The notes under the pieces were generated by a model, which did not search any database, was not told the origin of the DNA, and worked only from the letters and a program-made list of their open reading frames with translations. 64,000 nt of DNA. It comes from Minisyncoccia bacterium. GTDB taxonomy: Bacteria > Patescibacteriota > Minisyncoccia > SW-4-49-11. The first letter of the stretch is position 1. Each line of letters opens with the position of its first letter. Both the position numbers and the translations under genes were made by a program. The stretch is taken from NCBI GenBank assembly GCA_044356325.1, contig JBIKWJ010000004.1, positions 402 through 64,401 of the forward strand. The letters are read 5' to 3'. This document shows, in pieces, positions 20,801-59,889 of this stretch.

Positions 20801-20863
20801 AGAGATTAAATAATTATACTATTGTAAAATTAAGTTAGTTAAAAAGTTATCTAGAATTAATAT

Positions 20864-21583: not shown

Positions 21584-21695
21584 AATAATAAATGATTTAT
21601 ACCATAATTATACCATATTCTGTGGAAGAGGTAAATTTATATCCTAAAAAAAAGGGTAGTCATCGTACGACTACCCTAATAATCTCCACAACAGT

Positions 21696-22094: not shown

Positions 22095-22124
22095 ATATAT
22101 ATTTATTTGTCAAATGTATATATC

Positions 22125-22817
22125 TTAAATTAAATCTAACTTTCTCTTAGCAGTATTATAAAATTCTTCTACTATTTCATATCCATAAAATATTCCATTT
22201 CTCTTTAACACTTCAACTCCTAAATTAGCTGTACCCATAAAAGGATCTAGAACTTTCATTTCTTTTATAAAATATTTTCCCAAAATAAAATCTATTATTG
22301 CTTTAGGTTGAGGACAAGGATGTTCAGGTACAGATATGTAGTTAATATATAGAATATCACCAGAATATTGCTTTACTTTTGATTTACTAAAGACTAATAT
22401 TTGATGACAATTAGAATGGGAATACTCTTTAGTTATATAATTTTCATCAAATCCATGATCTGGTAATTCAAAACCATTATCTGAATTAACAAAATTAATA
22501 TGTCTAGTTTCTAAAAATAAATTACAATCTAATACAGCAAATTTCTGTACTAAACCAGCAAGTTGAATATATTTATTATCAGTAAAAATACTGTCTGATA
22601 TTTCTATTATTAATTTTCCATTTTTATTTAATTTTTTACTAATTTCTAAAATAACATTTTTTATAAAATAAATATATTTATCTAAATCTAAATCATCATC
22701 AAAATTTCCATAATAAGTTTTTATATTATAAGGTGGACTAAAAATAGCCAAGTCTATTGACTCTTCATCTATTTCTGACATAGATTCTGAGGAATGATTA
22801 AAAATTTTATATTTCAT
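22125..22817 (-). CDS. DNA methyltransferase, N6-adenine/N4-cytosine type (beta-class motif order), apparently orphan
   Basis: Motif IV IFSPPYN is near the N-terminus and motif I DPFMGTANLG near the C-terminus. No restriction endonuclease candidate is adjacent. Confidence 0.7.
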   Translation of the reverse strand: MKYKIFNHSSESMSEIDEESIDLAIFSPPYNIKTYYGNFDDDLDLDKYIYFIKNVILEISKKLNKNGKLIIEISDSIFTDNKYIQLAGLVQKFAVLDCNLFLETRHINFVNSDNGFELPDHGFDENYITKEYSHSNCHQILVFSKSKVKQYSGDILYINYISVPEHPCPQPKAIIDFILGKYFIKEMKVLDPFMGTANLGVEVLKRNGIFYGYEIVEEFYNTAKRKLDLI

Positions 22818-32948: not shown

Positions 32949-32967
32949 ACTTATAATCTACTTCCTT

Positions 32968-32997
32968 AGCCGAGATAATATCTCGGCTTTTTTATTT
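32968..32997 (+). terminator. Rho-independent terminator
   Basis: agccgaga-taata-tctcggct followed by TTTTTTATTT. Confidence 0.75.
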
Positions 32998-33017
32998 ATA
33001 GTTTATGTCTATAAATA

Positions 33018-33046
33018 TTGACATTTTGTCTAAAATATGCTATATA
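33018..33046 (+). promoter_or_regulatory. Sigma70-like promoter (TTGACA-17-TATATA)
   Basis: Consensus hexamers 28 nt upstream of the ATG at 33074. Confidence 0.5.
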
Positions 33047-33073
33047 TATTATGTTCTTTTCATCGAGGCACTA

Positions 33074-33852
33074 TGGCAAATCGTCGCTATAGCCTTAACA
33101 ATCAGTCCAAACAATCTGGCACCACCTCAGGTGCTAATTCTTCAACAAGCTCTTCACCCCCTTCATCCTCTGCTCCGGCAGGTAATAGTGGTAGTGGAAT
33201 GAAGATTCCATCTGGAGTTTCTCCTGGATTGCTTATCGCTGGTAGTGGTGCCTACCTCTTGGCACGAATGTTCTTCTTTGGGGGTGCTCTCGGGCCTATT
33301 GAGGCAATCGCTATCCTGATTGCAGATGGCTTCGCCTACAAGAACGGAGGCAAGGGACAAAAAAAACTTGCCGCCCTGATCATAGGCTTTACTGCCCTGA
33401 ATCTTGTATTCCCTGGTATTATCCCATGGATAAGAGGATTCCGGGAAGCCCAGATCAACCCTCCTGCTCCAGTTGAACAGGTAGCTCCTCCACCAGTTGA
33501 GGAGCCTCCTCCTTCAACCGAAAGAGTTGTAGTATCTGGTAAGAAAATCACCCTTACAGGTGATGGAACTTACTCGATACCCAAAGGGCGAAAGTCTCTT
33601 TGCTTCACAAACTTGGGAATGAAGGATGGGAGTTCAAATACCTCTCAGTATATGACTTTAAATGGAAAGGAATATATTTCTCTGGGGACAGAATGCCATG
33701 ATCTCCCTGAAGATCTCGAGGGAAAAGTTATCGTAGACTTTTTCCCTGGCAAAGAGTATGGTACTCCTGAAGGAGTGAGAGAACTCTATGCTTATTGGAA
33801 ATCCCAACCAGGAGGACAATCCGAATTACCTATCATTCGACTAGGTGAATAA
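33074..33852 (+). CDS. Hypothetical membrane-associated protein with a Ser/Pro-rich low-complexity N-region
   Basis: Start set at MANRRYSL. The upstream in-frame ATG at 33037 lies inside the promoter -10. The protein has two hydrophobic helices and a proline-rich PPAPVEQVAPPPVEEPPPS segment. Confidence 0.45.
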
Positions 33853-33918: not shown

Positions 33919-34833
33919 TCAAACCAAGGCTGAGATAATATATTGTGTGATGAGGAAAGCCCCCATAATTATCATAAGTCCCACCACTGCATTCCTAATT
34001 CCATCTAAAGCCTGACCTACTTCTCCTGGATTAGAACTTGTCATATATTTAAAACCTGACATTACCAGTATTGCAACGGTAATAGCACCTAATATTCCTA
34101 ATAAAGCATTAATAATACCCGCTATAAGATCTGGAATACTATTGAACTTAATAGGATTAGTGAATCCTACACTTTGAGGCGCTGATGAGTCAGTAGTTCC
34201 TCCCCCACCAGTAGATCCAGGAGTAGCAGTACTTGCAGTACAAGTTGGTTTACCACCTTGAGTAGCACAAACTTGCCCAGAGGTACAAGTCTTTCCATCA
34301 CATTTACCATTAACACTTGCATCTTTTGTACAAGTAGGCTTACCTCCCTGAGTGGCACATACTTGCCCAGAAGTACAGGTCTTTCCATCACAAGTATCAG
34401 CCGTTGAACCTCCTGAGGTTGATCCACCAGGACTACCTGGTGGTTTTTTACTAATGTCACATGGTCCTGTTTTAGGCCCTGGAGCTCTACATACACCTAA
34501 TTCACCACCAGATTTACAAGCATCTCCAATTATAACACAATCTTCCCACCCATTCTTCTCAGAATCAAGTGTTTTACAAGTCAATGGATTATTTTTTGCT
34601 ACACTATCTGCATTTGTCCTATCACAAAAACCACTTTCAGTCTGCGTTGCAGTTCCTGCAGATTGCCCTCTTCCTCCAGTAGTTACTTCTCTTTGATAGG
34701 TACAATCATCTCCATTTTTTTTACCAGAACATGCGGTATTTTGTGGAGAACTCTGAGCAAAGCTATTCTGAGGGATAATTAATCCTATACCTAATAAAAG
34801 TGAGAATAAAATATATTTCATACTAATTTGCAT
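33919..34833 (-). CDS. Secreted Cys-rich protein with two 30-aa tandem repeats and a C-terminal VirB2/TrbC-like pilin hairpin (array member 7)
   Basis: Signal peptide present. Repeat CDGKTCTSGQVCATQGGKPTCT appears twice. C-terminus LIAGIINALLGILGAITVAILVMSGFKYMTSSNPGEVGQALDGIRNAVVGLMIIMGAFLITQYI is the shared paralogous hairpin. Confidence 0.6.
   Translation of the reverse strand: MQISMKYILFSLLLGIGLIIPQNSFAQSSPQNTACSGKKNGDDCTYQREVTTGGRGQSAGTATQTESGFCDRTNADSVAKNNPLTCKTLDSEKNGWEDCVIIGDACKSGGELGVCRAPGPKTGPCDISKKPPGSPGGSTSGGSTADTCDGKTCTSGQVCATQGGKPTCTKDASVNGKCDGKTCTSGQVCATQGGKPTCTASTATPGSTGGGGTTDSSAPQSVGFTNPIKFNSIPDLIAGIINALLGILGAITVAILVMSGFKYMTSSNPGEVGQALDGIRNAVVGLMIIMGAFLITQYIISALV
34238..34395. 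repeat. Tandem in-frame DNA repeat, 2 x ~90 bp (63-bp near-identical cores)
   Basis: acaagt(t/a)gg(t/c)ttacc(a/t)cc(t/c)tgagt(a/g)gcaca(a/t)acttgcccaga(g/a)gtaca(a/g)gtctttccatcaca appears at 34240 and 34330. Confidence 0.8.
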
Positions 34834-35239
34834 TTAATGGTATATTGATATCATCTACTGTGTCATCTGCTGGGAATACAAATCCTAATACGGTATTGGA
34901 TACGACAAAGGCAAAGAATATAATAATCAGTCCTATGATTGCATTTACCATTCTTTTTTGAGCTGATTCAGCCTGCTTCTCATCCCCTCCTGCTGTTGCA
35001 TATTCAAATCCTGCATATAGGAATATAATAAATATTATAATTCCTATAAATCCTAATATCCACCTTATAATAATCGACACTGTCTCTATCAGGCTTGGTC
35101 CCTCAGCTATTCCGGTATTAATTGGGATTGTCCCTGGATCAGGGAGAGTGGCATCAGGGGCTCTTTGAGCTAGAGATATATTAGAACTTAATACAAATCC
35201 CCCCATCAATAAAGCTATTATAATCAATAAGACTCTCAT
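34823..35239 (-). CDS. VirB2/TrbC-like pilin-family protein (array member 6)
   Basis: Signal peptide, then IIRWILGFIGIIIFIIFLYAGFEYATAGGDEKQAESAQKRMVNAIIGLIIIFFAFVVSNTVLGFVF. This is two hydrophobic helices joined by a short Gly-rich loop, as in T4SS pilins. Confidence 0.55.
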   Translation of the reverse strand: MRVLLIIIALLMGGFVLSSNISLAQRAPDATLPDPGTIPINTGIAEGPSLIETVSIIIRWILGFIGIIIFIIFLYAGFEYATAGGDEKQAESAQKRMVNAIIGLIIIFFAFVVSNTVLGFVFPADDTVDDINIPLNAN

Positions 35240-35299
35240 ATCTATTTTACTATTCTATATATTACAAGTATATCAAGTATTCTATTATCTGACAAGAAG

Positions 35300-35560
35300 A
35301 TGTATAAGATGAGGAAATTGTAGACACTGAGTTCTATTCAAAGTGTAAGCTTGTATTTTATCCACCCCGTCTCCTCCCATACAAAAGTATGAGAGGAGAC
35401 ACCCCTCAAGAGGGGAATTTTTCGTACAGTACATTTTTATATATTCCCCTCTTGAGGGGTGCCGTCGCTAGACGGTGGGGTGGAATACGGGCGACTGTAA
35501 GGTCACCCCTACACAACTCACACTTTATCTAGATATATGTCTCATCTTCTGAAGAAGATG
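35300..35560. repeat. GC-rich palindromic repeat element (MITE/REP-like) with AT-rich terminal motifs, inside the pilin array
   Basis: Near-perfect ~130-bp palindrome: ccaccccgtctcctcc...cccctcaagaggggaatttttcgtacagtac | atttt...ttcccctcttgaggggtg...gacggtggggtgg. The same modules occur at 53911-54272 in opposite orientation. Confidence 0.75.
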
Positions 35561-35643
35561 AGACAAAGGATATAGTCTATCCCCTAAATAATAAAAAGGG
35601 ATATGATAATCCCTTTTTATTATTTGTATATTAGATACATTAT

Positions 35644-36030
35644 TTAGACATTTCCTTGGAATACGAATGACAATACTGCATTTGAAGCAACAAAGGCAAA
35701 GAATATAATAATTAATCCAATTACTGCATTAATCATTCGAGATGTTGCACTTTTTGCTTTTCCTTCATCTCCTCCTGCTGTTGCATATTCAAATCCTGCA
35801 AATAAGAAGATAATAAATATAACAATTCCAATAAATCCTAATGCCCATCGAATAACGAGAGAGATGGTTCCTGTCAAACTAGTAGATTGAAAAACTCCTG
35901 TTCCAGTTGGAATAACTCCTATTCCTCTATTATCTGGGGTAGGTGATACAGCTCCAGCTAAAGCAGGTGCTAATACTAATAAAGGTAATAATACTCTTGT
36001 CACTATTGATTTTATTCTGGAGTTATTCAT
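35644..36030 (-). CDS. VirB2/TrbC-like pilin-family protein (array member 5)
   Basis: Start trimmed to MNNSRIKSIVTRVLLPLLVLAPALAGA (signal peptide). Hairpin is IRWALGFIGIVIFIIFLFAGFEYATAGGDEGKAKSATSRMINAVIGLIIIFFAFVASNAVLSFVF. Confidence 0.55.
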   Translation of the reverse strand: MNNSRIKSIVTRVLLPLLVLAPALAGAVSPTPDNRGIGVIPTGTGVFQSTSLTGTISLVIRWALGFIGIVIFIIFLFAGFEYATAGGDEGKAKSATSRMINAVIGLIIIFFAFVASNAVLSFVFQGNV

Positions 36031-36129
36031 AAGAATATCTATAATTATTAAATAATATGTCCTATAAGTATATATTATCATATAATATATACTTATGCAA
36101 GTAATAGCATTGTGGATAAGTCTATTATA

Positions 36130-36468
36130 TTATAAGCCAAAGACAAATCCTAAGACCGCATTAGACAAAACAAATGCTAACCCTACAATAAACACTCCTA
36201 TTACTGCTGCTGCAATTCTACTTATGGCTTCTTCGGTTTTTTTAGGATCTCCCCCTGCTGTTGCATATTGGAATCCAGAAAATAGTATAAGGACAAATAA
36301 TATTATCCCTATTAACCCGAGGCTCCATCTTACAATAGCAGATACAAAGGTAAATATATCTCCTTGTTCTGTTACCCCAGTACCAGTAGGAATACCCAAA
36401 ACAGGTGGTACAGATTCCTGAGCTTTGGCTGTAGCTATTATAAGATTTGCTATAAGTTTTTCTAACAT
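36130..36468 (-). CDS. VirB2/TrbC-like pilin-family protein (array member 4)
   Basis: VRWSLGLIGIILFVLILFSGFQYATAGGDPKKTEEAISRIAAAVIGVFIVGLAFVLSNAVLGFVFGL. Confidence 0.55.
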   Translation of the reverse strand: MLEKLIANLIIATAKAQESVPPVLGIPTGTGVTEQGDIFTFVSAIVRWSLGLIGIILFVLILFSGFQYATAGGDPKKTEEAISRIAAAVIGVFIVGLAFVLSNAVLGFVFGL

Positions 36469-36479
36469 ATATAAGATTA

Positions 36480-37151
36480 TTAAGCGCCAGCAGCAAGTAA
36501 ACCACTAGTTACAAAATTAGTAATGAGGAATGCCCCCATAATAATAAGCAATCCAATCACGGCATTGGTAATAGCTCCTGTAGCAGCTGCTGTTTGGCTA
36601 GCATTTCCAGAGGACGTCATATAAAGATATCCTTGTAATACAATGATTATAAAAAATACAGTTCCAAGAAGCCCTAATATCCAGCGTATAATATTAGCGA
36701 CATATCCTATGAGAGTTCCTCCTGTATTAAGTCCTGATCCAGCATTTCTGAATTGATTTAACCCCTGAGACAGTCCATTTGATTCACTATTAATATTATT
36801 ACCGCCAGTTGTAGGTGTTCCATTTGGAGAGTTTGGTGTATTTGGATTTTGCTTAGCATCTGCTGCAGGTTTTAATGTATTGGCTTTAGGTACAGGAGCA
36901 CATACAATTTCCTTTGCTTGATTTTGAATACATGCTTGTCCAGAGCTACATTTAACAGTAGAGTCTCCTCGGCAATCTCCATTACTTTCTGCCTGATTTT
37001 CCAAACATTTTGTAGCACCATCTACTGTTACACAGACAAAATCTCCCGTACAGTTAGGACCAGTGCCACAAGCAGCTAAAGCATTATCTGCCCCCCCCAT
37101 AAATCCGATTGCAAATAGAATTGCTAAACTTGTTGATAAAATAAATCTCAT
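36480..37151 (-). CDS. Secreted Cys-rich protein with a C-terminal VirB2/TrbC-like hairpin (array member 3)
   Basis: Signal peptide. Cys module CGTGPNCTGDFVCVTVDGATKC...CRGDSTVKCSSGQACIQNQAKEIVC. C-terminus IRWILGLLGTVFFIIIVLQGYLYMTSSGNASQTAAATGAITNAVIGLLIIMGAFLITNFV. Confidence 0.55.
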   Translation of the reverse strand: MRFILSTSLAILFAIGFMGGADNALAACGTGPNCTGDFVCVTVDGATKCLENQAESNGDCRGDSTVKCSSGQACIQNQAKEIVCAPVPKANTLKPAADAKQNPNTPNSPNGTPTTGGNNINSESNGLSQGLNQFRNAGSGLNTGGTLIGYVANIIRWILGLLGTVFFIIIVLQGYLYMTSSGNASQTAAATGAITNAVIGLLIIMGAFLITNFVTSGLLAAGA

Positions 37152-37181
37152 AATATCTATATTTAATTATTTTTAATTATA

Positions 37182-37904
37182 TCATCTTTTTCTTAATTTC
37201 CAAATAAATAACCCAAGCCCCCCAGCAAGAAATAGTATTCCTCCTATTAAAATAGCTATATTTCCGGATGTTTTAGATTGTTCTGGATCTGAATTTGTAT
37301 CAGTATTAGGGGTAGGAGTATTGGTAGATAATAGTATAGTTCCTGCCTCATCTCGAATAACTCCATTTTCTTTTTGAAGGGTTTTCTGAGTTTCCTCTGA
37401 TAATGTAATATCTGGACCAAGACAATCTGCTATACAGGTATTATTATTCTCCCCTTTTTCATATTCACAGACATTATTTTGATTGCAAGTACTGTCCTTG
37501 GTTACATCTATATTCAATACTTTTCCATTTTGACTCTTGATATTAATAGCCTTAACATGAGGGAAATAAGGAATATTTATCACAAAAGTACCTTCTTTAT
37601 AGGGATATATTAGAGTTTGAGGAAAAGTGTATTGATAAGCCTCTAAATTTACCTGGAAATTATTATCTACAGGAAGAGCTGCTCTATCGTAAATACTTAA
37701 AGTATCATCAGTATCCTGTACCTGTATTGGCTCTGAGACAAATTTATCTAGACGAATTTCATCAGTAGCTTTGTCATAAAATAAAGATACTTGATAACTT
37801 TTGGCAGTACTAATCAATGGGAGGAATAGTAGGGTTAAGAATATGGTGTAAAAAGAGAATTTCATAGTATTGATATTATTGTTTACAAGCCCCTGTTTGC
37901 TCAT
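37182..37904 (-). CDS. Secreted protein with a small Cys module and a C-terminal TM anchor (array member 2). Start is ambiguous; 37865 is the alternative.
   Basis: Signal peptide MKFSFYTIFLTLLFLPLISTA, module DSTCNQNNVCEYEKGENNNTCIADC, and C-terminal anchor ILIGGILFLAGGLGLFIWKLRKR. It lacks the pilin hairpin. Confidence 0.5.
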   Translation of the reverse strand: MSKQGLVNNNINTMKFSFYTIFLTLLFLPLISTAKSYQVSLFYDKATDEIRLDKFVSEPIQVQDTDDTLSIYDRAALPVDNNFQVNLEAYQYTFPQTLIYPYKEGTFVINIPYFPHVKAINIKSQNGKVLNIDVTKDSTCNQNNVCEYEKGENNNTCIADCLGPDITLSEETQKTLQKENGVIRDEAGTILLSTNTPTPNTDTNSDPEQSKTSGNIAILIGGILFLAGGLGLFIWKLRKR

Positions 37905-39375
37905 CAGCTAACATTTTAGCGCAGGTTTCTGCAAATGGATATGCTCTAGTTTTATCATTTTGTTGTTCACAACCCACAATACTTGCCCACTGACATCTAT
38001 AAGAGCTGTTCCTAAATGATTGACAGTCAGTAATTCCGTTCTTTTTCAAAGTAGCAGCAACTGCTGCATCTTGATATTGTGGAGCCATATTATAATACGC
38101 AAATGTACCCTCTTTGATAGTATAAGTACCTGGTTTAACTGTGGGGACGCCCGCTACGGCTGCCCAAGAAGCCCAAGTAGTTGACAACATCTGAAATCTA
38201 CCATAAGCATCACTGTTAAGTCCGGTAGTATTGTATAGATTAGGATTTTCTGCTCCTGGATGTATATTTTGAGATTGAGGATACATTTTTCCACCTACTA
38301 ATCTAAAATAGCCCGACCTATCAGAGGCTCCTTCATAAAAAGATATAGTTCGCATTACGGCAGATATATTATCATCTAAATTAGTTGCGTCTACACAAGC
38401 AACACTTAATGATCCAACATTACCACTACCTCCACCTGTGGTTGCCGCGCCTCCTCCATTTGAGCCATTATCATTAAAAGTGCTCGCAGTGTCACATTTT
38501 ACTTCGAATATTTTACCTGATTGAAAAGTGAATACTGCTGAGAAATTTTGTTCTTGGAAACCAAGCCCTACGAGGAGAAAACTAAATAAGAGAAAACTTG
38601 ACATTACGAGTAATAGACCAATTACCGCATTAGTAATAATGCTATATCCTGTACTTACCCCCCCAGGATTACCGGCTGAGGTAAGTATATATACTCCACC
38701 AATTACAATACTTAATACTGCCAGTGAAGCGAGTAGACCCAAAGCTAAATTAAAGATGTCTCGAATTAAGATAAATATATCACAAATAGTACAGTCTCTA
38801 CTGGTACCACATTTAACAAGTCCTGTTTCTGAATTGGTTGAGCTTCCATTAGTTGTTCCACCACCAGTATTGACTAGTCCAGGAGTATTAGAACCAGTTG
38901 AACCCCCAGAGGTACCGACTTGGTTGCCTCCTCCACCAGCATTAGATCCAGATGGTGAATTAGTGGTACCACCAATAGTTGCATTTTCTTTTATACATTT
39001 AAAGTTACTACATTTAAGACCTGCTACACATTCATTTCCATTCCCAGAACAAGACTGTCCTTCTGTTTTATTTCCTCTTGGGCTGGAACAAACTTGATTA
39101 ATACAAGCCAATCCATTTTGACAGGTATCTCCGGAGCAAGATGATCCTAAACTTCTACGACAAGTTAACCCTAATCCTAGATTATTTTTATCTTTAACTT
39201 GGCATTTTCCATTTAAACGAGAAATCCCATTTTGAAATGTACAATTTTGCTCTAATGCTGTTGCCCTAGCACTACAGGCTCCATCAGCTGTCTGAGCATA
39301 AGTAGATTTAATACTAAAAAATGAAGCTATTAAAAAGATTATACTAAAGACTATACCAAACTTTATATATTTCAT
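37876..39375 (-). CDS. Tripartite secreted protein (array member 1): Cys-rich N-domain, central VirB2/TrbC-like hairpin, and C-terminal phage-lambda-type lysozyme/lytic transglycosylase domain
   Basis: Signal peptide, then Cys modules (CSGDTCQNGLACINQVC, CSGNGNECVAGLKCSNFKC) and a Gly/Thr-rich linker. Hairpin is IRDIFNLALGLLASLAVLSIVIGGVYILTSAGNPGGVSTGYSIITNAVIGLLLVMSSFLLF. The C-terminal ISFYEGASDRSGYFRLVGGKMYP...AYGRFQMLSTTWASW aligns with lambda R lysozyme (LAWSEGTD...YDVIVGG...AGRYQLLSRWWDAY), including the catalytic Glu. Confidence 0.65.
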   Translation of the reverse strand: MKYIKFGIVFSIIFLIASFFSIKSTYAQTADGACSARATALEQNCTFQNGISRLNGKCQVKDKNNLGLGLTCRRSLGSSCSGDTCQNGLACINQVCSSPRGNKTEGQSCSGNGNECVAGLKCSNFKCIKENATIGGTTNSPSGSNAGGGGNQVGTSGGSTGSNTPGLVNTGGGTTNGSSTNSETGLVKCGTSRDCTICDIFILIRDIFNLALGLLASLAVLSIVIGGVYILTSAGNPGGVSTGYSIITNAVIGLLLVMSSFLLFSFLLVGLGFQEQNFSAVFTFQSGKIFEVKCDTASTFNDNGSNGGGAATTGGGSGNVGSLSVACVDATNLDDNISAVMRTISFYEGASDRSGYFRLVGGKMYPQSQNIHPGAENPNLYNTTGLNSDAYGRFQMLSTTWASWAAVAGVPTVKPGTYTIKEGTFAYYNMAPQYQDAAVAATLKKNGITDCQSFRNSSYRCQWASIVGCEQQNDKTRAYPFAETCAKMLADEQTGACKQ

Positions 39376-49336: not shown

Positions 49337-51292
49337 ATGGAGTATACTATATGTATGTATATTTTGCAAGTTGTCCCTCTCATCAAACTCCCTGGTCAAA
49401 TAAGCCAAACTTTGACCTATTATGCTTCCGAGAATATTCTCCCGGGAACTCTTATCTTAGTGGGAGTTCGTAATACAGATATTACCGCAATAGTTTATTT
49501 TTGTCAAGAGTTGACAAATGCCAAACAAGATTTAAAGAAATTTGCAAGCTTTAGCCCCAAGCCAATTCGCAAGCGATTTTCTGATAATAGCTTGTTAACA
49601 AGCCAACAATTAGAATTAGCTCAATGGATGAGTAATTATTATGCCCATGCACTTGGTAATATTATCAAATTATTTATACCCAAATTATCCAACAAAATAA
49701 AACGCTATCCCAATATACTCAATGTCCCCTCTCCTGAAATAGAATTAGGCCCTGATTATATACCAAAAGTATTCCTAGGAACTCTTACTAAACGTCTCAA
49801 ACACTATCATACTATTCTTAAATCAACTATAGGTCAAATACTGATATTAGTACCCGATACTATTAGTCTCGAAAGACTTTCCCGTGAATTTGCAGATTAT
49901 AATCCCCTACTCATCAGCTCACAACTCGGCATAACTGCCCAGAGGGCCGCTTGGTCTCAAGTCAAATCAGGAGAAGCTAAGATTATTATTGGTACGAGAG
50001 GTAATATATTCCTTCCCTTTCAACATTTAACTCATATTATCATTGAGGATGAATCCTCTGAAGCCTATTATTCTTTTGATACCAAACCTCATTATCATAC
50101 AACCAGTATTGCAGTCGAGGTAGCCAAATTATATAAAGCCCATATCACCCTCGCCTCCACTATTCCGAGCATTAGTACTCTTGCTTTATTAGAATCTCAT
50201 AATCTCAGTCTCCCCACTGAGGTATACCCTCATATCCCTAAATCCAAAATCAATTTGATTGAAATGCAAACCGAATTCTATAAGGGAAACCGAGATTTAT
50301 TATCCATACCCGCCCAAAAAGCTATACAGAAGTCTCTACAAAATAATCAATCTGTTATTATATATGTCAATCGCCGAGGTGAATCTCTCTATGTATCTTG
50401 CCGCGATTGTGGATATCACCTCAGAGACCCAAAAACAGGAACTTTACTCACCGTGCATCGTGTAGACACTTTACCAAAAGCCATACCCAATTATACCGAG
50501 AATCAAGTATTATTATCCCATAGCTCACATAAATGGTTTAAGATGATACATATTTGCCCACAATGCAAATCCCTCAATTTACATCAAGGAGGAATTGGAA
50601 TTGAGAAAATTGAAGATTTTAGTAAATCCTTATTCCCCAACATTCCCCATTTTGTACTTTCTAGTGATACCGCCAGCAACTTGGAACATCAGCAAAGTAT
50701 TATAGATAATTTTACTCAGACTAAACCCGCAATTCTACTCACTACGCGTATGATACACAAATTTCTAGATACTATCCCGAAAACTCTCACCATTATCCCC
50801 TCTGCTGAATCCCTGGTTAATTTCCCCGATTATACTATTCGAGAAAAGTCAATACAGGTTTTATCCGAGCTCATAATGCATAGTGATAAAACTCTAATAC
50901 AGACATTCACCGCTTGGAATCGTGATGAGGAGAGTCCCTCACATATTCACACCATACTCAATCACCCTATTGCCGAGTTATGGGAACAAGAATATGAGAA
51001 TCGCAATCTCTATCATTATCCCCCACAATATGAGATTATCGCCATACATTCACAACATCATATCAGATCCAAATCTCTAGCCCAGGCTCTCAGAATCAAA
51101 GAGGCTTTGTCTAGTATACATATACGAGCTCTTGGACCTTTAGAAAAATATATTGCTCGAGGCAAGGGTCTGTATCGCTTTACCCTCACTATACAAACCT
51201 CACCCAAACAAGCCACCTCTATCAAACGCAAATTAGTCCCCATATTAGAATATGGCCAAGAAATAGAAATCAATCCCCCAAATTTGGTGTAA
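49337..51292 (+). CDS. priA: Primosomal protein N' (PriA) homologue with degenerate helicase motifs
   Basis: Collinear with PriA: ILILVPDTISLERL (cf. ALVLVPEIALTPQ), AKIIIGTRGNIFLPF, and the Cys4 zinc region CRDCGYH...CPQC. Walker A reads TLTKRL (not GSGKT) and Walker B reads IEDES (not DEEH). Confidence 0.7.
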   Translation: MEYTICMYILQVVPLIKLPGQISQTLTYYASENILPGTLILVGVRNTDITAIVYFCQELTNAKQDLKKFASFSPKPIRKRFSDNSLLTSQQLELAQWMSNYYAHALGNIIKLFIPKLSNKIKRYPNILNVPSPEIELGPDYIPKVFLGTLTKRLKHYHTILKSTIGQILILVPDTISLERLSREFADYNPLLISSQLGITAQRAAWSQVKSGEAKIIIGTRGNIFLPFQHLTHIIIEDESSEAYYSFDTKPHYHTTSIAVEVAKLYKAHITLASTIPSISTLALLESHNLSLPTEVYPHIPKSKINLIEMQTEFYKGNRDLLSIPAQKAIQKSLQNNQSVIIYVNRRGESLYVSCRDCGYHLRDPKTGTLLTVHRVDTLPKAIPNYTENQVLLSHSSHKWFKMIHICPQCKSLNLHQGGIGIEKIEDFSKSLFPNIPHFVLSSDTASNLEHQQSIIDNFTQTKPAILLTTRMIHKFLDTIPKTLTIIPSAESLVNFPDYTIREKSIQVLSELIMHSDKTLIQTFTAWNRDEESPSHIHTILNHPIAELWEQEYENRNLYHYPPQYEIIAIHSQHHIRSKSLAQALRIKEALSSIHIRALGPLEKYIARGKGLYRFTLTIQTSPKQATSIKRKLVPILEYGQEIEINPPNLV

Positions 51293-51314
51293 TATCTTAA
51301 TAAGGTTAAATATC

Positions 51315-51385
51315 TGAGTTCTGTAGGGGCGACCTGGTAGTCGCCTGTGCTATTATGTTCCCCCTCTGAAGACGGTGAGCTAGGT
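51315..51385. repeat. GC-rich repeat module (ctgtaggggcgacc..gtcgcctgtg type)
   Basis: Shares ctgtaggggcgacc and tcgcctgtg with 53931-53960 and 31757-31790, and (reverse-complemented) with 35488-35512. Confidence 0.7.
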
Positions 51386-51392
51386 TTCGATA

Positions 51393-51427
51393 GTAGAAAA
51401 AGAGGGACAGCATTACGCGCTGTCCCT
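51393..51427 (-). terminator. Rho-independent terminator for the clamp-like gene
   Basis: gggacagc-attacgc-gctgtccc followed on the minus strand by CTTTTTCT. Confidence 0.6.
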
Positions 51428-51444
51428 TAACACTGAATATACAC

Positions 51445-52338
51445 CTATAAACTCACGATGGGCATTAGCAAGTAATCCATATGTATATACGGCCCTATGG
51501 TGGCAGTAAATAGGAATTGCCCTGATCGTGTAGACCGATTGATATTCATTGTAACCAAACCCGATGATGAATAGCGCTTAACTAGCTCAAGGAAATCCAA
51601 TAACTGTTTTACACTAAAAGAGATATCCTCATAATGAATAGGTGTTTGCAATAAAATATCTAACTCTTTACCGTTATACGCAGTAAATATGAGCTTTAAT
51701 GAACCATTATCTTGCCTAGTTTGAACATTAACCACACCAGCCGCCAGCAACTCCAACTTCTTAACTTCTTGATCCGTTAATTCTTCTGAATCCCCCGCTA
51801 ACCTCTTAACTGCTTCACCCATTAAATTCTTAACTTTTTTAAGGAAATTGTATAAACGGTTACCATCAAAAGATACTGTATTTTGGTGGTCTAGAGTTGG
51901 CCAAGCATTGTCTAGGCTCTCATAAGGATATTGATTAATTCTATTTTTCCTTAATTCAATCCTATCCGAGGAAATGGAGCGAATTATTGGGTTACCTTTG
52001 CATAGATCATCTATAACCCCTACTTGTCCAATACCCAATTGGCTACGACCTAATTGGTCTATTCTTACAAACCGAGGGGACTTAACATATCTTGAAAATG
52101 CACTTCGATGAATGAGTATCGGCTTTGTGCAGTGCCATATGGTATTTTGAAAGGTAATACGCAATGCTCGAACGGTATCAGTGGAAATAATTCGCATTCC
52201 ACCATTTAAAGGCTGGATAAAAATGCAGTTAAGGCCCTCACGATATTTATCCCTACTAGCACATATGCTAGCCGCGTACAGTACGCCTTCAGGTAGCAAC
52301 GCTAATACTTTGTTCATGGGAAAAGCTCCAATGTACAA
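51445..52338 (-). CDS. Two-domain DNA polymerase III beta-clamp-like protein (DnaN paralogue lacking domain I)
   Basis: REGLNCIFIQPLNGGMRIISTDTVRALRI aligns with DnaN domain II (RYYLNGMLFE....LRTVATDGHRLAV). The C-terminus YLLMPIVSL resembles DnaN YVVMPMRL. The gene has visibly higher GC than its neighbours. Confidence 0.5.
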   Translation of the reverse strand: MYIGAFPMNKVLALLPEGVLYAASICASRDKYREGLNCIFIQPLNGGMRIISTDTVRALRITFQNTIWHCTKPILIHRSAFSRYVKSPRFVRIDQLGRSQLGIGQVGVIDDLCKGNPIIRSISSDRIELRKNRINQYPYESLDNAWPTLDHQNTVSFDGNRLYNFLKKVKNLMGEAVKRLAGDSEELTDQEVKKLELLAAGVVNVQTRQDNGSLKLIFTAYNGKELDILLQTPIHYEDISFSVKQLLDFLELVKRYSSSGLVTMNINRSTRSGQFLFTATIGPYIHMDYLLMPIVSL

Positions 52339-52432
52339 AAAGAATATATCATATCTCTTCCAATTTGTCTACGATATATCTCATCACCCTCCTTGCTTTT
52401 TTGCCTCATTTATGCTATAATATAGTAACAAA

Positions 52433-52966
52433 TTGTTATACTATTATATGATTCTTGATATTGAAACAGGACTTAAAAATCCTATTCTCCGTACCAAATC
52501 TGAACCTATTGATTCTATTACTCGAGATATTCATAAATTAGCTCGAGATATGAAATCTAGTATTAGACCTCATCATGGGATGGGGCTTGCTGCTCCACAA
52601 GTCGGACATAATGTACGATTGATTTTGATTAATGTCCCAGGAGAGCATTTTGAAGAGTCAGGATTTGAGGATTGTGCTTTGGATCAACATTATGTAATTA
52701 TTAATCCTGAATTAACTGCTTTGAGTCAGGATACTGCTACTATGGAAGAGGGGTGTTTATCTTTGCCTGAATATTTTGCTGATGTGATTAGGCCTACCAG
52801 TATTGAATTTACGGGGCTTAATCTAAAGGGTGAGAAAATTGGTGGTAAGGCTTATGGAATTTTTGCTCGAATTCTACAACATGAAATTGATCATCTTGAT
52901 GGGGTATTATTTGCTGATAAGGCGCTTCCTGTAAAGCTAAAACAAAGTGGGAAAGTGTATGTCTAA
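52433..52966 (+). CDS. def: Peptide deformylase
   Basis: Motifs GMGLAAPQVG, EGCLS and QHEIDHLDG. Confidence 0.9.
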   Translation: MLYYYMILDIETGLKNPILRTKSEPIDSITRDIHKLARDMKSSIRPHHGMGLAAPQVGHNVRLILINVPGEHFEESGFEDCALDQHYVIINPELTALSQDTATMEEGCLSLPEYFADVIRPTSIEFTGLNLKGEKIGGKAYGIFARILQHEIDHLDGVLFADKALPVKLKQSGKVYV

Positions 52967-53909
52967 ACCCCGTATTGTAGTTTGGGGTACTCCTCAGCTT
53001 ACGGTTGCTATTGCTGAGTACCTACTCGATTGGGCCGATATTGTCGCCATCATTACTACTCCCGATACTCCGCAGGGGCGTAAAAGAATTTTAACTCCTA
53101 GTCCGCTCAAAGTATTTGGGGAAAGTAATTTTATTCCCGTGTATAGTCCTATTTCTCTCAAAACTCCCGAGACTAGTGAATTATTGCGTACATTATCTGC
53201 TGATATTTGGCTTATTATTGCCTATGGTAAAATTATTCCGCAGGCTATATTAGATATTATGCCTCATAGAGTACTGAATATTCATCCTTCAAGACTTCCT
53301 CAATATCGTGGACCATCTCCTATACAGGCGAGCCTCCGTAATGGAGACAAGAGTACCGCTGTTAGTTTGATGGAGATTGATCATTTGATGGATCATGGAC
53401 CTATTATTGCTCAGGAGGAAATGAGTATATCCCCTACTGATACCTATATTGAACTTGAGGCAAAAGTTATCACTGTTGCGGCTGATATACTGAGACAAAA
53501 TCTCATTCCTTTTATAAATGGAGGAATTACTTCCCAGCCTCAAGATGATGCTAAAGCTAGTTTTGTGAAAATGGTTCAAAAAATTGATGGGATTATTGAT
53601 TGGGAGAGTCAATCAGCTGAGGATATTATGAATGCCTATAGAGCTTATACTATTTGGCCTCAAGTATATACCTATCTCAATACGGATAAAAAGATTGTAT
53701 TTGATAGATTAGATCTTGAGCATATATCTGATATTAAGCTTAAGCCAGGATATTGGCAATTAGATTCTACTAGTCATAATCTGATTATTGGAACAAAAAT
53801 AGGGAATATTGCGGTCAAAGAATTAACTGTAGAAGGGAAAAAGACTATTACTGCTGATAGCTTTGCGAATGGATATGCAGGGGTGTATTTTGTGAATAGA
53901 GAGTTATAA
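52947..53909 (+). CDS. fmt: Methionyl-tRNA formyltransferase
   Basis: HPSRLPQYRGPSPIQASL formyltransferase core. It overlaps the def stop by 20 nt. Confidence 0.9.
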   Translation: MGKCMSKPRIVVWGTPQLTVAIAEYLLDWADIVAIITTPDTPQGRKRILTPSPLKVFGESNFIPVYSPISLKTPETSELLRTLSADIWLIIAYGKIIPQAILDIMPHRVLNIHPSRLPQYRGPSPIQASLRNGDKSTAVSLMEIDHLMDHGPIIAQEEMSISPTDTYIELEAKVITVAADILRQNLIPFINGGITSQPQDDAKASFVKMVQKIDGIIDWESQSAEDIMNAYRAYTIWPQVYTYLNTDKKIVFDRLDLEHISDIKLKPGYWQLDSTSHNLIIGTKIGNIAVKELTVEGKKTITADSFANGYAGVYFVNREL

Positions 53910-53910
53910 T

Positions 53911-54272
53911 ATCGTAGATAAATTGTGAGTTCTGTAGGGGCGACCTTACAGTCGCCTGTGTTCTCCACCCCGTCTGTCTAGAGACATCCACCCCTCAAGA
54001 GGGGAATTTTTCGGACAGAGCCTTTTGTTATATACTGACTCCTATCTACTCACAACCCATGAGGGAAATTTTTAGAACAGTACATTGTATATATTCCCCT
54101 CTTGAGGGGTGGACAGCTTCGCTGGACGGGGTGGATAAAATACAAACTCAAACTCTATCCACCTCCGGCCTAGCGGCGACCTCCTCCAAAGGAGGACAAT
54201 AAAACTGTCCCTCGCTGGCGAGGGTGCCCGTAAGGGCGGGTGTGGACTGAGCTAATTCCCCTCTTGAGGGGT
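53911..54272. repeat. ~360-bp composite cluster of GC-rich palindromic repeat modules (largest copy of the family)
   Basis: Contains ctgtaggggcgaccttacagtcgcctgtg, ccaccccgtc, cccctcaagaggggaattttt ... ttcccctcttgaggggtg, gacggggtggata, tatccacctcc, gacctcctccaaaggaggac and ttcccctcttgaggggtag. All of these recur at other loci. Confidence 0.8.
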
Positions 54273-54291
54273 AGCAAAATAATATCAGAAA

Positions 54292-54320
54292 TTGACAAAA
54301 CTGCTATTTTATGCTATAGT
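54292..54320 (+). promoter_or_regulatory. Sigma70-like promoter (TTGACA-17-TATAGT) upstream of the glycosyltransferase gene
   Basis: Consensus hexamers immediately upstream of the ORF at 54323. Confidence 0.5.
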
Positions 54321-54322
54321 CT

Positions 54323-55875: not shown

Positions 55876-58800
55876 TTATTTGTTAAGTACTTGTCGCACA
55901 GCTTCTTTAATTCCTATCATCTTACTTGGTTGCAAGAATGTGGATAGAGGTTGTATTATATTGTTAGTATTCGGAAGTTTGACTGGCTTCCAAAATCCAG
56001 AGGTTGGTATTTTACTATCAGAACTAAACTCAGCCCAATTAAATATTTGGTTAAAATCTTCTGCTGACTTTATACCTTTAAAAGATAAATATTCTCGGAA
56101 TAGTTGAACATTCTGATTGTTTGGATTAGGGTTGCTTACAATAGCATCGTATAGCCAGTTTTTACCTGCATCAGTTTGTACATAAGTATCTAATACCTGC
56201 TTACCTAAATTAGAGTCATAAGGCAAGTTCCCTAATTCATTAGCGATATATCTCTGCACTACACCTAAAGAGTTTGTTCCTTTAGTTAATTCCACCATAT
56301 CTGGAGCATCTTCAAATCTAGCTAAAATAGTCTGATTCAAAACGTTTCTTAATTCATCAGAGTTTATGTTATTAACTACTTCAGACATTTGCTCTGGACT
56401 TAAGTTAGCAAAGTCAGTAAGACTATTAACTCCAAATCCATTAGATAAAAATGTAGATCCTTCACCTATATTGATTATAGAGTTATAGATTACTTCTCTT
56501 CCATAATCATCTGTAAAATATGATTGTATAATTTCTTTAGCTTGTAAATCTGTAAGATTTTGCTTACCTAATATTTCAGATAAATCTCTAGTAAATTTAC
56601 TAGTTGCAACTGGTGGAACTTCTGGAGCTAGAGTTGATACTGGAGCTTCGGCTGCTGGTGGAACTGTAGGCTCTGATCCTAAAGATTCAGTGCCTAATGG
56701 TGATGATGCTGGTGTTTCGGGATATCCTGGCTCAATAGTAGGAGATTCTGCTGGAGATGGAGCAACATATTCTGTCGGTTGGAATGCCTCAAGATGATCT
56801 ATGTTAAAATGACTAATTCCCTCTAATTGACCCGGACCTAGATATCTTGAAACTTCATATAATTGCTCTTTTGAAAGACTGGCCATTTCATTAGCATTAT
56901 CTATTCCCCATTGTGCTAATAATCCTCTTCCCCCTTCTGTACCTTGCGCTAATTGAAACATCGTATTCTGACCTACTCCCGACTGCACATAATTTTCTAG
57001 GGCATGCTGTATTTGGTCTGGACTAGCATTTGGCCCTAATTGTTTAGCTATTTCTCCCCATAAAGTCTCACCTTTACTTAATTGAGATATATCTTGTAAT
57101 TGTACAGAAGGATTATCAGGACTATCTATAATATCTGGTTTAGGAGTATTGGTAATCTGCTCTGGATTAAAAATTCCTCCTGGCCTCATCATATCAACTG
57201 CTAATGAGGTCATAAGGCCTCCACCCACTGCTGTTCCTACTACATTTGCAATAAGTCTATTCCTTTGTTGTTTTTGTAATTCTGTAATACGTTCTTTTGA
57301 TAAAGTAGTTAATAATCTACTTGTATATTGCTGATTATATTCTGGGGAAGAGAATATAAATTTCTCAGGTTGAGCTTTTACCTCACCTTCATCACTATTA
57401 CTATTCTCTGAATTTATGGTTTCACCCTCAATTTTATTAATATTAGTAAGAAGCTCTTCTTTTTCGGGCTGTTTTGCAATACTTTCACGCTGTACTCTTG
57501 TACCTAATTCATTTAATATGGCCTCATAAGCTGTTTGCTGTGATTCATTAGTAAATTTACCACCATTAAGGCGATAATAGGCCTCGAGTGTACTAAGCTT
57601 TGTACTAAGATCAACATCCTTTGCCTCCTTAATATATCCTTCTTGTAATGACTCCCCTACTAATTTTGGTATAGCTGCTTGAAAATTAATATTCAAACCA
57701 AATTTATTGATTTTAATACTCCCATCTTCAAAACCAGCACGAGCTAATTCTCGACTTGATACTCCAGACATAAGACTTGATACAGAACGCCTCAATACTG
57801 CGAGTCCTCCCGCAACAGGTAATCCAAATCCTGTTAATGCTAAGGTAGTTCCTACTCCAAAGGCTACCAAATTGAGTCTACTAATAAATTTTTTATGTTT
57901 AATAGCAAAATTGAAAAATCTTTCTTTTAGTGGATTTATTGCCTTCTCAAATCCAGATTGTAATTCTTGTGATTGTAATATTCTTTCTTCTCTCAAATTC
58001 TTAACCTCTTGTGTAAAGACTCTATGAATTTCTGACTCTAAACCTTGAGCTGACATAATACCAATAACTTCCTCAACTGTTTGATTATATTCTCCCCTTA
58101 GTCTTTCTAATTCTAGTTTTGCACTCTCATCATTACGATTTCTATTATACAATTCTTCAGCTCGGGCATAAGCTTTTCTCAAATTATCAAGTTGTGCTTT
58201 TGAGCTAGTTTCTAATTGCTCATCTTGTTTAGAAGTATCACCTATAGTTTCTGTAACCTGAACATTTGGTAATTCTTCAGCTGGGGTTAATTTAGGAGTT
58301 TTATCTATTGGGTATAAAGGAGATTCTTCTTCTGGATTTGGTAAAATATGCTCAATTGGAGTATCCGACGGATCTACAATTATAGGTTCTAAGAATTCCT
58401 TATCATTTAATACTCCTTCTATCCAATCTGGAGTATTTGGATTTAATCCTTCTATGATATAACCTAATTTTTTGTTTTCATTATTACTTGTATATATGAT
58501 ACGAACTGGTCTTGATTTAGCAAAAATCTCCTCAAAAGTCCTTGGGCGATTTAGTTCAACTTCATTACCCTCATTATCAACAATATGTGTAATATTACCT
58601 TCAGTGTTAAGTTTAATAGTCCCTGTACTTACAAGAGAATTTTTAGCATCTGATATGTTAATTAAATCTCTATGTGCTATTAATATATCTCTTAGTTGTG
58701 GTAATTTCCGAGAGAGATGTCCATCAAGTTTATGTGATAATTTTTCCACTTTATCCCAAGCATCTGTTTCTAATTGTCTATAAACATTTTGAACAGATTC

Positions 58801-59889
58801 AGTTCTAAGATTTGGTGCATGTGTGTCACCAAATTCTTTATACTTTTGTATAGCTTCACGTGCTTCTTGTTTTAATAGTTCAATTTCTGCACTATTATCA
58901 AGGGTTTCTAATTCTCCTTCACCAGGATATATTTTACCCTCTATTCTAGCTAATGCACCTCCCGTTTCTCGTTCAACAATACTATCAACTACACCATTTA
59001 ATTCTTCCTGTAATGATTCTTCTCCAGGTAATTTATCAAGTAGTATTTCTGTCTCTACATCTAATCCGGAAGGACTTGTTTCAGATGGAGGTGTATTATC
59101 ATCTTGAAAATACGGATACCTATTTAGTATTTCATTTAATTCAGGATCAATAACTCTTTTATCTATAGATTTACCACTTGCTGAATGAGTTAACTCCTCT
59201 ACTGACCCTCCCCCCTGTTGAGAATCTGGCTCTTCTTCTATTTGAGGTTCTTCTGAATTTAAGGGTTCAAGACCAATTTTTTCTCTCCAAATATTAATAT
59301 TCTTTGGAGTTAATTCATTATTTTGCAATTCTGCTGGAATTAAACCTTCTTCTTGGACTATTCTTCTGAGGTCAAATCTTGCCTGATTACCTTTCTTTCC
59401 TTCAGGAATACCGAGTAATGTTGCAAAGGTTGGGATTATAGATCGTGAAAGTTCATACTTTATTTCGTTATCTGATAATTCAAGAATCCCATCCTTTATC
59501 CTACCCGATTGAGTCCATGTTATTTGATGTAGGGTAGATTCTTTTGATTCATTGCCTTCTTCTGGATCAGGAGATTCTACAGAAGGGACATATTCTGATA
59601 ATCCATATGCCAGCCGAATAGTATTTATCATATACAAATATACCCCTGATATATTTCCTTCTCTTTTCAAATCTAATGCTTCTTGATAATGTGGAAATTG
59701 CTCTAAAACTGGCACAACGCCCTTAGATGTAATAGCATCGATCAGTTGTAGTTTTTCTGTTTTTGTAAGCTGAAGCCAACCTGGTAATTCTCCCCCATGT
59801 TTTTTATGTGCTTTTGAAGCTTCACGAGTTACAAAAGGCATAGATGATTCTTGTTCCACGAATCTAAGTTGTTCTGGTGATCTTCCCAT
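55876..59889 (-). CDS. Giant (1337-aa) acidic hypothetical protein with central TM helices, coiled-coil and Pro/Glu-rich segments
   Basis: Uninterrupted 4-kb ORF. TM candidates are FGVGTTLALTGFGLPVAGGLAVL and LIANVVGTAVGGGLMTSLAV. No recognisable catalytic motifs. Confidence 0.6.
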   Translation of the reverse strand: MGRSPEQLRFVEQESSMPFVTREASKAHKKHGGELPGWLQLTKTEKLQLIDAITSKGVVPVLEQFPHYQEALDLKREGNISGVYLYMINTIRLAYGLSEYVPSVESPDPEEGNESKESTLHQITWTQSGRIKDGILELSDNEIKYELSRSIIPTFATLLGIPEGKKGNQARFDLRRIVQEEGLIPAELQNNELTPKNINIWREKIGLEPLNSEEPQIEEEPDSQQGGGSVEELTHSASGKSIDKRVIDPELNEILNRYPYFQDDNTPPSETSPSGLDVETEILLDKLPGEESLQEELNGVVDSIVERETGGALARIEGKIYPGEGELETLDNSAEIELLKQEAREAIQKYKEFGDTHAPNLRTESVQNVYRQLETDAWDKVEKLSHKLDGHLSRKLPQLRDILIAHRDLINISDAKNSLVSTGTIKLNTEGNITHIVDNEGNEVELNRPRTFEEIFAKSRPVRIIYTSNNENKKLGYIIEGLNPNTPDWIEGVLNDKEFLEPIIVDPSDTPIEHILPNPEEESPLYPIDKTPKLTPAEELPNVQVTETIGDTSKQDEQLETSSKAQLDNLRKAYARAEELYNRNRNDESAKLELERLRGEYNQTVEEVIGIMSAQGLESEIHRVFTQEVKNLREERILQSQELQSGFEKAINPLKERFFNFAIKHKKFISRLNLVAFGVGTTLALTGFGLPVAGGLAVLRRSVSSLMSGVSSRELARAGFEDGSIKINKFGLNINFQAAIPKLVGESLQEGYIKEAKDVDLSTKLSTLEAYYRLNGGKFTNESQQTAYEAILNELGTRVQRESIAKQPEKEELLTNINKIEGETINSENSNSDEGEVKAQPEKFIFSSPEYNQQYTSRLLTTLSKERITELQKQQRNRLIANVVGTAVGGGLMTSLAVDMMRPGGIFNPEQITNTPKPDIIDSPDNPSVQLQDISQLSKGETLWGEIAKQLGPNASPDQIQHALENYVQSGVGQNTMFQLAQGTEGGRGLLAQWGIDNANEMASLSKEQLYEVSRYLGPGQLEGISHFNIDHLEAFQPTEYVAPSPAESPTIEPGYPETPASSPLGTESLGSEPTVPPAAEAPVSTLAPEVPPVATSKFTRDLSEILGKQNLTDLQAKEIIQSYFTDDYGREVIYNSIINIGEGSTFLSNGFGVNSLTDFANLSPEQMSEVVNNINSDELRNVLNQTILARFEDAPDMVELTKGTNSLGVVQRYIANELGNLPYDSNLGKQVLDTYVQTDAGKNWLYDAIVSNPNPNNQNVQLFREYLSFKGIKSAEDFNQIFNWAEFSSDSKIPTSGFWKPVKLPNTNNIIQPLSTFLQPSKMIGIKEAVRQVLNK

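Follow-up and report, generated by a model that had tools for sequence, protein, structure and literature searches.

The gene examined here, termed X (window protein P0001), lies in a stretch of 64,000 nucleotides from a Minisyncoccia bacterium (Patescibacteriota; assembly GCA_044356325.1, contig JBIKWJ010000004.1, positions 402 to 64,401 of the forward strand); this whole stretch is referred to as the window. X occupies the spacer between priA and the def-fmt pair. A preliminary description of the DNA, made from its letters alone, had pointed to a 297-codon open reading frame (ORF) in a program-made list, at 51445-52338, as a clamp-like protein with DnaN domains II and III, and had placed it convergent to priA. 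The frame is real and lies on the minus strand; ORF positions and strands confirm that X is convergent with priA, and it is divergent from def-fmt. X is an accessory gene on an inserted cassette, is predicted to encode two domains of the β-clamp type, and is tentatively read here as a phage-derived module that binds peptides through a clamp pocket.

The true start of X is most likely the ATG at 52317, which gives a protein of 290 amino acids (aa), because a GGAG (52329-52326) and a promoter-like site precede it and public gene calls use 52317. A strong intrinsic terminator, also noted in the preliminary description, starts 18 nt past the stop codon. Between strains the promoter region is kept at about 95% in sliding nucleotide identity, unlike the ORF itself. 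The gene had further been called visibly GC-richer than its surroundings. This holds weakly: GC is 0.385, where the genes average 0.351 (z = 0.9, rank 8 of the 54 window genes), and third-position GC (GC3) reaches z = 2.0 (rank 4 of 54). Synonymous codon usage, on the other hand, is truly atypical (z = -3.0, second lowest of 54). Composition backs a foreign origin only modestly. The long forms of X are basic, with isoelectric points (pI) of 9.2-9.6 against 5.25 for E. coli β and 5.2-5.8 for most phage forms, and helix α3 of X carries six K/R residues.

The likeness of X to DnaN has to be drawn from profiles and structure, because single-sequence searches gave none: the X protein alone matches no DnaN family at E <= 1 in Pfam or NCBIfam, PF00712 included, and phmmer/hmmsearch searches of PDB sequences with it return no DnaN match. 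Its relatives do better. PF02768 (DnaN C-terminal domain) is weakly matched by 10 of 16 close homologues (best E 3.3e-4); in the wider family of 26 members, 10 match PF02767 (central domain, best E 6e-5) and 4 match PF02768. The best values reached by any relative are 6e-5 for PF02767 and 1.1e-4 for PF02768, and X itself stays below all curated profile thresholds. On the phage full-length clamp profile phrog_947, the N-terminal part falls at positions 139-200 and the C-terminal part at 236-365. In hhalign comparisons with E. coli β, X residues 13-75 align to β 138-201 (E 1.3e-5, probability 80%) and residues 231-287 to β 316-364 (E 0.008, probability 5%). Within the first of these, the strand STDTVRAL aligns to E. 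coli ATDGHRLA (residues 171-178); the last segment of X (motif 4) resembles the C-terminal half of DnaN domain III and ends in YLLMPIVSL, against YVVMPMRL in E. coli. By motif and length, the linker between the two domains would be the counterpart of the β connector FPDYRRVLP (E. coli 241-249). Residue blocks that are invariant in the X family include NTVSF, VQTRQD, FTA, RYS-SG-TM and LLMP.

Structure prediction points the same way. An AlphaFold (AF2) monomer model from a 32-sequence alignment has a mean predicted local distance difference test score (pLDDT) of 79.2 and a predicted template modelling score (pTM) of 0.79; an earlier model from just 16 close homologues was poor (pLDDT 58). The model contains four β-α-β-β-β motifs, equal to two complete clamp domains, and an extended helical hairpin at residues 152-192. 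In Foldseek searches against the PDB, the top 47 matches are all bacterial β clamps (E 2e-12 to 4e-10; template modelling (TM) scores 0.51-0.61), and PCNA first appears at rank 48. In the viral structure library BFVD the best matches are phage β clamps; significant structural matches extend to PCNA and to viral two-domain clamps, and UL44 is matched as well. X is thus modelled as two β-clamp-type domains, domain 1 being the counterpart of DnaN domain II and domain 2 that of domain III, with domain I absent. The proposed likeness to domains II-III is confirmed by weak family-profile matches in relatives, hhalign and Foldseek, and the proposed lack of domain I by the 290-aa length, the two-domain model and the missing PF00712 match. 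The clamp fold itself, for which structure prediction had been named as the check, was found (pLDDT 79, E 2e-12).

X lies on an insertion. With PriA as bait, three sister genomes were found, GTDB metagenome-assembled genomes (L017-L019) that are 96-97% identical to the window in PriA, 97-99% in Def and 93-95% in Fmt. All three are without X: the priA stop codon is followed after 62 nt by the def start, in a co-directional priA-def-fmt array. Their empty site reads GTGTAA-TAYCTT/GCTTTTTTGCC (the slash marks the junction), and the insert of the window lies between these bases and has CTT at each junction. X is the only gene on the cassette of about 1.1 kb. X-carrying contigs from several metagenomes share the synteny recJ...fmt-def-X-priA-greA-metG-gatB-gyrA. 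No homologue of X turned up among the 185,579 GTDB representative genomes, all of which were scanned. Since near-identical sister genomes do without it, X cannot be an essential replicative clamp; it is an accessory gene. The suggestions of a clamp-derived accessory factor and of horizontal acquisition are thereby upheld, the latter by the empty priA-def sites. The converse arrangement, in which X would be the sole dnaN with its domain I encoded in a split gene upstream, is excluded, since def lies directly upstream and the sister genomes lack X entirely. Of the other genes called in the window, none has a DnaN Pfam domain.

Table 1. Features of X, its cassette and the flanking genes in the window
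Feature	Position	Strand	Basis or remarks
X coding sequence, 290 aa + stop	51445..52317	(-)	ORF list; identical 290-aa product called on 9 public contigs
Domain 1, residues 1-128, resembling DnaN domain II	51934..52317	(-)	hhalign, PF02767, two β-α-β-β-β motifs
Inter-domain linker, residues 129-146, QYPYESLDNAWP	51880..51933	(-)	family alignments
Motif 3, residues 147-229, first half of domain 2	51631..51879	(-)	helical hairpin 152-192; gap in phage relatives
Motif 4, residues 230-290, second half of domain 2	51448..51630	(-)	hhalign, PF02768, phage half-domain hidden Markov model (HMM)
Promoter-like site of X, TAGACA-17 nt-TGnTATATT	52343..52371	(-)	promoter scan; -35 region holds host-wide motif ATCGTAGACAAA
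Intrinsic terminator of X	51403..51427	(-)	10-bp stem, 6 GC pairs, 5-nt loop, CTTTTTC tail
Inserted cassette: hairpin + terminator + X + promoter, ~1,096 bp	51299..52394	(-)	alignment against empty sites of L017-L019
Repetitive extragenic palindrome (REP)-like hairpin, priA-proximal cassette end	51315..51349	(+)	32/35 identical to 53926-53960 3' of fmt; third copy 35486-35512
ATCGTAGAYAAA copies	10445-10456(-), 14264-14275(+), 32580-32591(+), 52364-52375(-), 53911-53922(+)		
priA, flank, outside cassette	49337..51292	(+)	PF17764, PF18074, TIGR00595
def-fmt, other flank, outside cassette	52448..53909	(+)	PF01327, PF00551, PF02911

The ends of the cassette resemble one another only through promoter and hairpin motifs that occur host-wide. 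The motif ATCGTAGAYAAA in the -35 region of X is found five times in the window (0.26 expected), and the X promoter region matches the upstream region of a 622-aa pilin-like gene (8518-10386) at 21 of 22 positions; ATCGTAGAYAAA could serve as an extended -35 or an operator element specific to the lineage, a hint of co-regulation. The REP-like hairpin, GTAGGGGYGACC-N5-GTCGCCYGT, occurs three times (0 expected), at 51323-51349(+), 53934-53960(+) and 35486-35512(-), and the cassette copy probably now terminates priA. Because its promoter and hairpin motifs are of host type, the cassette is taken to be well adapted to the host lineage and is no newly arrived phage DNA. A transposon or integron cassette was rejected, as neither transposase, integrase nor terminal inverted repeats were found and the junctions share just the 3-nt CTT. 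The priA-def spacer looks like a hotspot at which insertions recur: between these two genes a more distant genome, with a PriA 71% identical, has an unrelated ORF of 217 aa for a predicted membrane/coiled-coil protein (L020:1258-1911, +). The hairpin copy 3' of fmt directly follows a copy of the promoter motif, within a gene-free stretch of 413 nt (53910-54322) that might encode a small RNA.

The closest relatives of X are phage proteins, in agreement with the mobile or phage-type origin that had been proposed. An exhaustive HMMER search of 1.84 billion representative proteins yielded just 30 clusters related to X. Four of them are the close long form; the rest are 190-250 aa long and match the N-terminal domain and the C-terminal ~60 residues. 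The close-family profile retrieves this phage family at E-values of 1e-18 to 1e-4, through both N- and C-terminal stretches. Contigs with short forms carry genes for ERF, a DUF3987 primase-helicase, SNF2/ResIII helicase, terminase, HNH, portal and Kyano_Gp96 proteins. One short form is gp14 of the cultured freshwater cyanophage S-SRP02 (a Synechococcus phage; QTP86370.1), listed in the S-SRP02 paper as "DNA polymerase III beta subunit" from a 29% BLAST hit, and another lies on an IMG/VR contig. The short forms match phrog_3007 end to end (E 3.6e-18), and X matches it in the N-terminal part only (E 4.8e-4). The label of that profile, "RusA-like Holliday junction resolvase", appears to be wrong, the family being this short clamp-like one; no description of the X family was found in the literature.

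Past a conserved YP..WP linker, the short forms have some 70-78 residues. Because this leaves room for one β-α-β-β-β motif, they would comprise about 1.5 clamp domains. The segment equal to X residues 147-229 is a gap in all short-family sequences, and it is this segment, motif 3, that looks rebuilt in X. Motif 3 resembles motif 4 far more than the native clamp halves resemble one another, with an internal repeat ("VSFNGAYLLDFLKKVK" against "ISFNGAYLLDFLKLVN") that reaches z = 11.7 in local alignment. The L009 allele has a 44-nt direct repeat (91% identity, spacing 252 nt) and a 13-nt repeat at the FTA strands (spacing 177 nt). An HMM of the phage half-domain, against which motif 4 scores 43-58 bits, also matches 11 of 11 motif-3 segments (E 3e-8 to 6e-4; domain-1 controls E >= 0.08). 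The helical hairpin contains short repeats of 24/45 nt, one allele has an extra KRLADQAV unit, and the fragmentary alleles P0015 and P0016 have no hairpin. Motif 3 is probably a copy of motif 4 whose helical hairpin has expanded. Because the short form is diverse and phage-borne and the long form is found in one narrow lineage, capture of a short form followed by half-domain duplication and helix expansion is the parsimonious order. The reverse, in which phage forms suffered a deletion and X underwent gene conversion, is conceivable.

Alleles of X diverge far more than their surroundings. X proteins are 56-90% identical and neighbouring proteins 91-99%; nucleotide identity in the flanks is 90-100% and drops to 47-66% from the X start codon to just past the terminator. 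For the six X alleles with DNA (15 pairs), the ratio of nonsynonymous to synonymous divergence (dN/dS) is 0.56-1.26, against 0.06-0.12 in def and 0.06-0.09 in priA. By region it is 1.45 in the first motif of domain 1 (residues 1-58), 1.10 in β1-α of motif 3 and lowest, at 0.52, in the motif-3 strands. The alleles are block mosaics: L015 equals L016 at both ends and is 100% identical to L009 in the centre. In closer alleles dS is 0.04-0.14 for X against 0.23-0.37 for the flanks, and because X dS is below flank dS, X alleles would have spread recently across diverged backgrounds. In L015 Def is 97% identical to that of the window, but Fmt only 66%, a GT4 glycosyltransferase 61% and DUF5663 70%, and priA-greA-metG are missing from the locus; these features mark a sharp recombination or rearrangement boundary beside X there.

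Despite this divergence, which reaches about 28% in nucleotides, all 11 full-length alleles are intact and the indels between them are in frame at the protein level. Simulated neutral substitution leaves a frame free of stop codons with a probability of 0.003 when divergence is 13% and < 0.0002 when it is 33%, which rules out neutral drift. Two relatives that looked like a decaying N-terminal domain or pseudogene (P0013 and P0014; 177 and 228 aa) turned out to be miscalled starts: gene callers had shortened X at L015:4001-4534 and L016:4001-4687, and tblastn shows intact full-length frames of ~290 aa. A diversity-generating retroelement or other targeted hypermutation was also rejected, as no reverse transcriptase or template repeat lies nearby and the divergence is ORF-wide with indels and block mosaicism, not A-specific in one variable region. 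Taken together, the allele comparisons indicate that X is maintained by selection while many of its sites change freely or adaptively.

In the E. coli β clamp, subsites I and II of the peptide-binding pocket comprise R152, L155, T172, G174, H175, R176, L177, N320, Y323, V360, M362, P363 and M364, and the dimer interface is carried by domain I and native motif 3 (I272/L273) (PMC11139829). Mapped through the hhalign alignments, phage proteins appear to conserve almost all pocket-lining residues: the family keeps K/R152, L155, T172, G174, H175 (31 of 43), R176, N320, Y323, L360, M362, P363 and V364. In the chromosomal long forms T172, R176, L360, M362 and P363 are kept, and G174 is replaced by S/T in 9 of 11, H175 by V in 9 of 11 and R152 by H in 7 of 11. 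The X protein of the window, by a weak hhalign mapping, keeps R26, L29, T46, R50, L283, M285 and P286 at pocket positions and has T48 for G174, V49 for H175, S235 for N320 and Q238 for Y323. The dimer-interface elements are missing from the phage forms and replaced in X, and for this reason a canonical ring is disfavoured; a PCNA-like or other closed ring also looks somewhat disfavoured for X.

Among the neighbours, PriA was said to have degenerate ATPase motifs, and it does: within residues ~150-250, the Walker A region reads LGTLTKRLKHY, with no canonical Walker A, and IIIEDESSEAY stands where DEEH is expected; the alignment to TIGR00595 begins no earlier than model position 27. Strong purifying selection acts on the gene all the same (dN/dS 0.06-0.09), and the protein keeps its 3'BD, Cys-rich and C-terminal domains; PriA may be ATPase-inactive in this lineage of the Candidate Phyla Radiation (CPR). 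Other window genes include recJ, gyrA, gatB, metG, greA, EF-G, S7/S12, RNase P RNA and a T4SS_pilin array. The array (33919-39375, -) holds about seven tandem T4SS_pilin (PF18895) paralogues followed by an SBP_bac_1 gene, typical CPR surface/pilus machinery. At 20670-22817, a methyltransferase gene (20864-21583, GC 0.25) and an N6_N4_Mtase gene (22125-22817, GC 0.23) adjoin a tRNA gene (20670-20755) and may form a small foreign or restriction-modification island. Two genes at 31962-33852 (+) exceed all others of the window in GC (0.42-0.46) and in how atypical their codon usage is; one has a faint Band_7 match, and both are candidates for horizontal acquisition. A 1,337-aa protein without a Pfam domain (55876-59889, -), followed by a DUF5663 gene, keeps its synteny across strains.

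The explanation preferred here, tentatively and with a probability of roughly 0.45, is that X is a stand-alone module for clamp-pocket binding, an adaptor or decoy in phage-host conflict and not a processivity ring, domesticated from a phage. A phage "clamp-pocket" gene would have been captured into the chromosome; duplication of the half-domain that was left would then have made its second domain complete, after which the helical hairpin expanded. The product might engage a peptide resembling the clamp-binding motif in a replication protein of phage or host. The recombination-driven diversification, pocket positions G174, H175, R152, N320 and Y323 included, would then reflect an arms race between phage and host, whether as superinfection exclusion, defence or target mimicry. 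Accessory distribution and rapid recombination-driven diversification fit anti-phage defence genes, as circumstantial evidence.

Several observations weigh against this explanation. PADLOC gave no match for P0001, P0004, P0044 or P0055, and X lies outside any recognisable defence island. A search of IMG/VR for the long form found none, and with its host-type promoter and hairpin motifs the cassette need not have come straight from a phage. The positions mapped to the pocket are not significantly more variable than the rest of X, and the mapping to the E. coli pocket itself depends on hhalign alignments of low probability (80% and 5%). A dN/dS near 1 together with recombination would also be expected from partly relaxed constraint. 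For the direction of change, duplication in the long form or deletion in the phage forms, the grounds are parsimony and the sequence similarity within the protein. Lastly, the basic long form with its K/R residues in α3 would suit a DNA-encircling clamp as well. A further-reaching version is less likely: that X and its phage relatives form a new functional class of non-ring "clamp-pocket modules" with which phages capture proteins that have clamp-binding motifs, and of which X would be a CPR-domesticated, hypervariable immunity or decoy factor with a second domain rebuilt from a half-domain.

The best-surviving rival, itself unlikely, makes X an alternative sliding clamp: a two-domain protomer assembling head to tail into a PCNA/gp45-like trimer or another closed ring, for a specialised polymerase, repair or recombination, for instance in restart with PriA or on DNA imported by type IV pili. 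The two complete clamp domains of the model, the significant structural matches to PCNA and viral two-domain clamps, the basic protein with K/R-rich helices, the conserved C-terminal LLMP tail and the promoter motif common to the pilin-like gene all speak for such a clamp. Yet X is dispensable in sister strains, and its dN/dS of 0.6-1.3 is unlike that of any core replication or repair factor (def and priA < 0.12). The parts that carry the β dimer interface, domain I and native motif 3, are either lacking or exchanged for a neo-duplicate from which a helical hairpin protrudes, and convergence with priA means that the two genes are not co-transcribed.

A role as a moron-like modulator of host replication is less probable still. 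X, kept from a phage, would sequester or redirect host proteins that bind the clamp (Pol III alpha, delta, Hda-like proteins, MutS/L), and so tune or arrest replication with no part in immunity. Its stand-alone cassette with promoter and terminator is what morons have, and the phage relatives keep the pocket nearly intact and sit in early/replication modules. A conserved host partner, however, predicts purifying selection on the pocket, yet G174, H175 and R152 are replaced and vary between alleles, and the mosaic diversification is left without explanation. Improbable, finally, is a selfish or nearly neutral passenger, a mobile-element or prophage remnant spread by homologous recombination of its flanks at no benefit to the cell: a dN/dS close to 1, presence/absence polymorphism with a narrow distribution, the recent spread seen in an X dS under that of the flanks and the atypical codon usage would suit it, but all 11 full-length alleles are intact (simulated chance < 0.0002), indels stay in frame, invariant residue blocks remain, the motif-3 strands have a dN/dS of 0.52, the promoter is 95% conserved, and transposase, integrase and inverted repeats were not found.

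Few replication proteins are as conserved or evolve as slowly as sliding clamps, whereas X is dispensable, strain-variable and mosaic, and its rate of evolution is about ten times that of its neighbours. Should the explanation by conflict or decoy hold, phages and CPR bacteria, about whose phages very little is known, would be contesting the peptide pocket of the clamp, and X would add a new protein type to the repertoire of defence and counter-defence. The 1.5-domain phage forms and the rebuilt two-domain X would give a concrete, testable example of clamp-domain loss and regeneration from half-domains; the half-domain duplication, if true, would be a natural repeat of the route, by duplication, along which sliding clamps have long been proposed to have arisen. 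On the practical side, annotation pipelines give these proteins differing labels (hypothetical, "DNA polymerase III beta subunit", "RusA-like"), and replisome inventories drawn up for reduced genomes could go wrong as a result.

Among known systems, the β clamp DnaN (PF00712 + PF02767 + PF02768) shares the fold with X: domain 1 aligns with domain II, including the pocket strand T172-D173-x-x-R176, and the C-terminus with the last half of domain III, including the V360-x-M362-P363 tail. DnaN has three domains in ~366-380 aa, whereas X has 290 aa and no domain I, and motif 3 of X is not sequence-homologous to the native one, looking instead like a copy of motif 4. DnaN is acidic, essential and conserved; X is basic, strain-variable and fast-evolving. 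PCNA and T4 gp45 likewise have two clamp domains per chain and are significant structural matches, but they trimerise and have no sequence relationship with X, which is structurally nearer β.

Herpesvirus UL42 and UL44 also have a two-domain clamp fold, and they are an earlier example of proteins with this fold that do without a closed ring, as a monomer or C-shaped dimer. They differ from X in being polymerase subunits of eukaryotic viruses, with no sequence relation to it, and no polymerase gene lies near X. Phage morons are similar in another respect, as single genes with their own promoter and terminator between conserved genes, with atypical codons and presence/absence polymorphism; X, however, sits in a bacterial housekeeping operon and not in a prophage, and has host-type regulatory motifs. 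The only relatives detectable by HMMER are the phage short forms (phrog_3007, S-SRP02 gp14), which share the N-terminal domain, the YP..WP linker, the C-terminal half-domain and the LLMP tail. At 190-250 aa they are acidic, have no motif 3, keep G174/H175 and lie in phage replication/early regions, whereas X is chromosomal and carries ~83 extra residues (147-229), which amount to an additional β-α-β-β-β motif and a hairpin.

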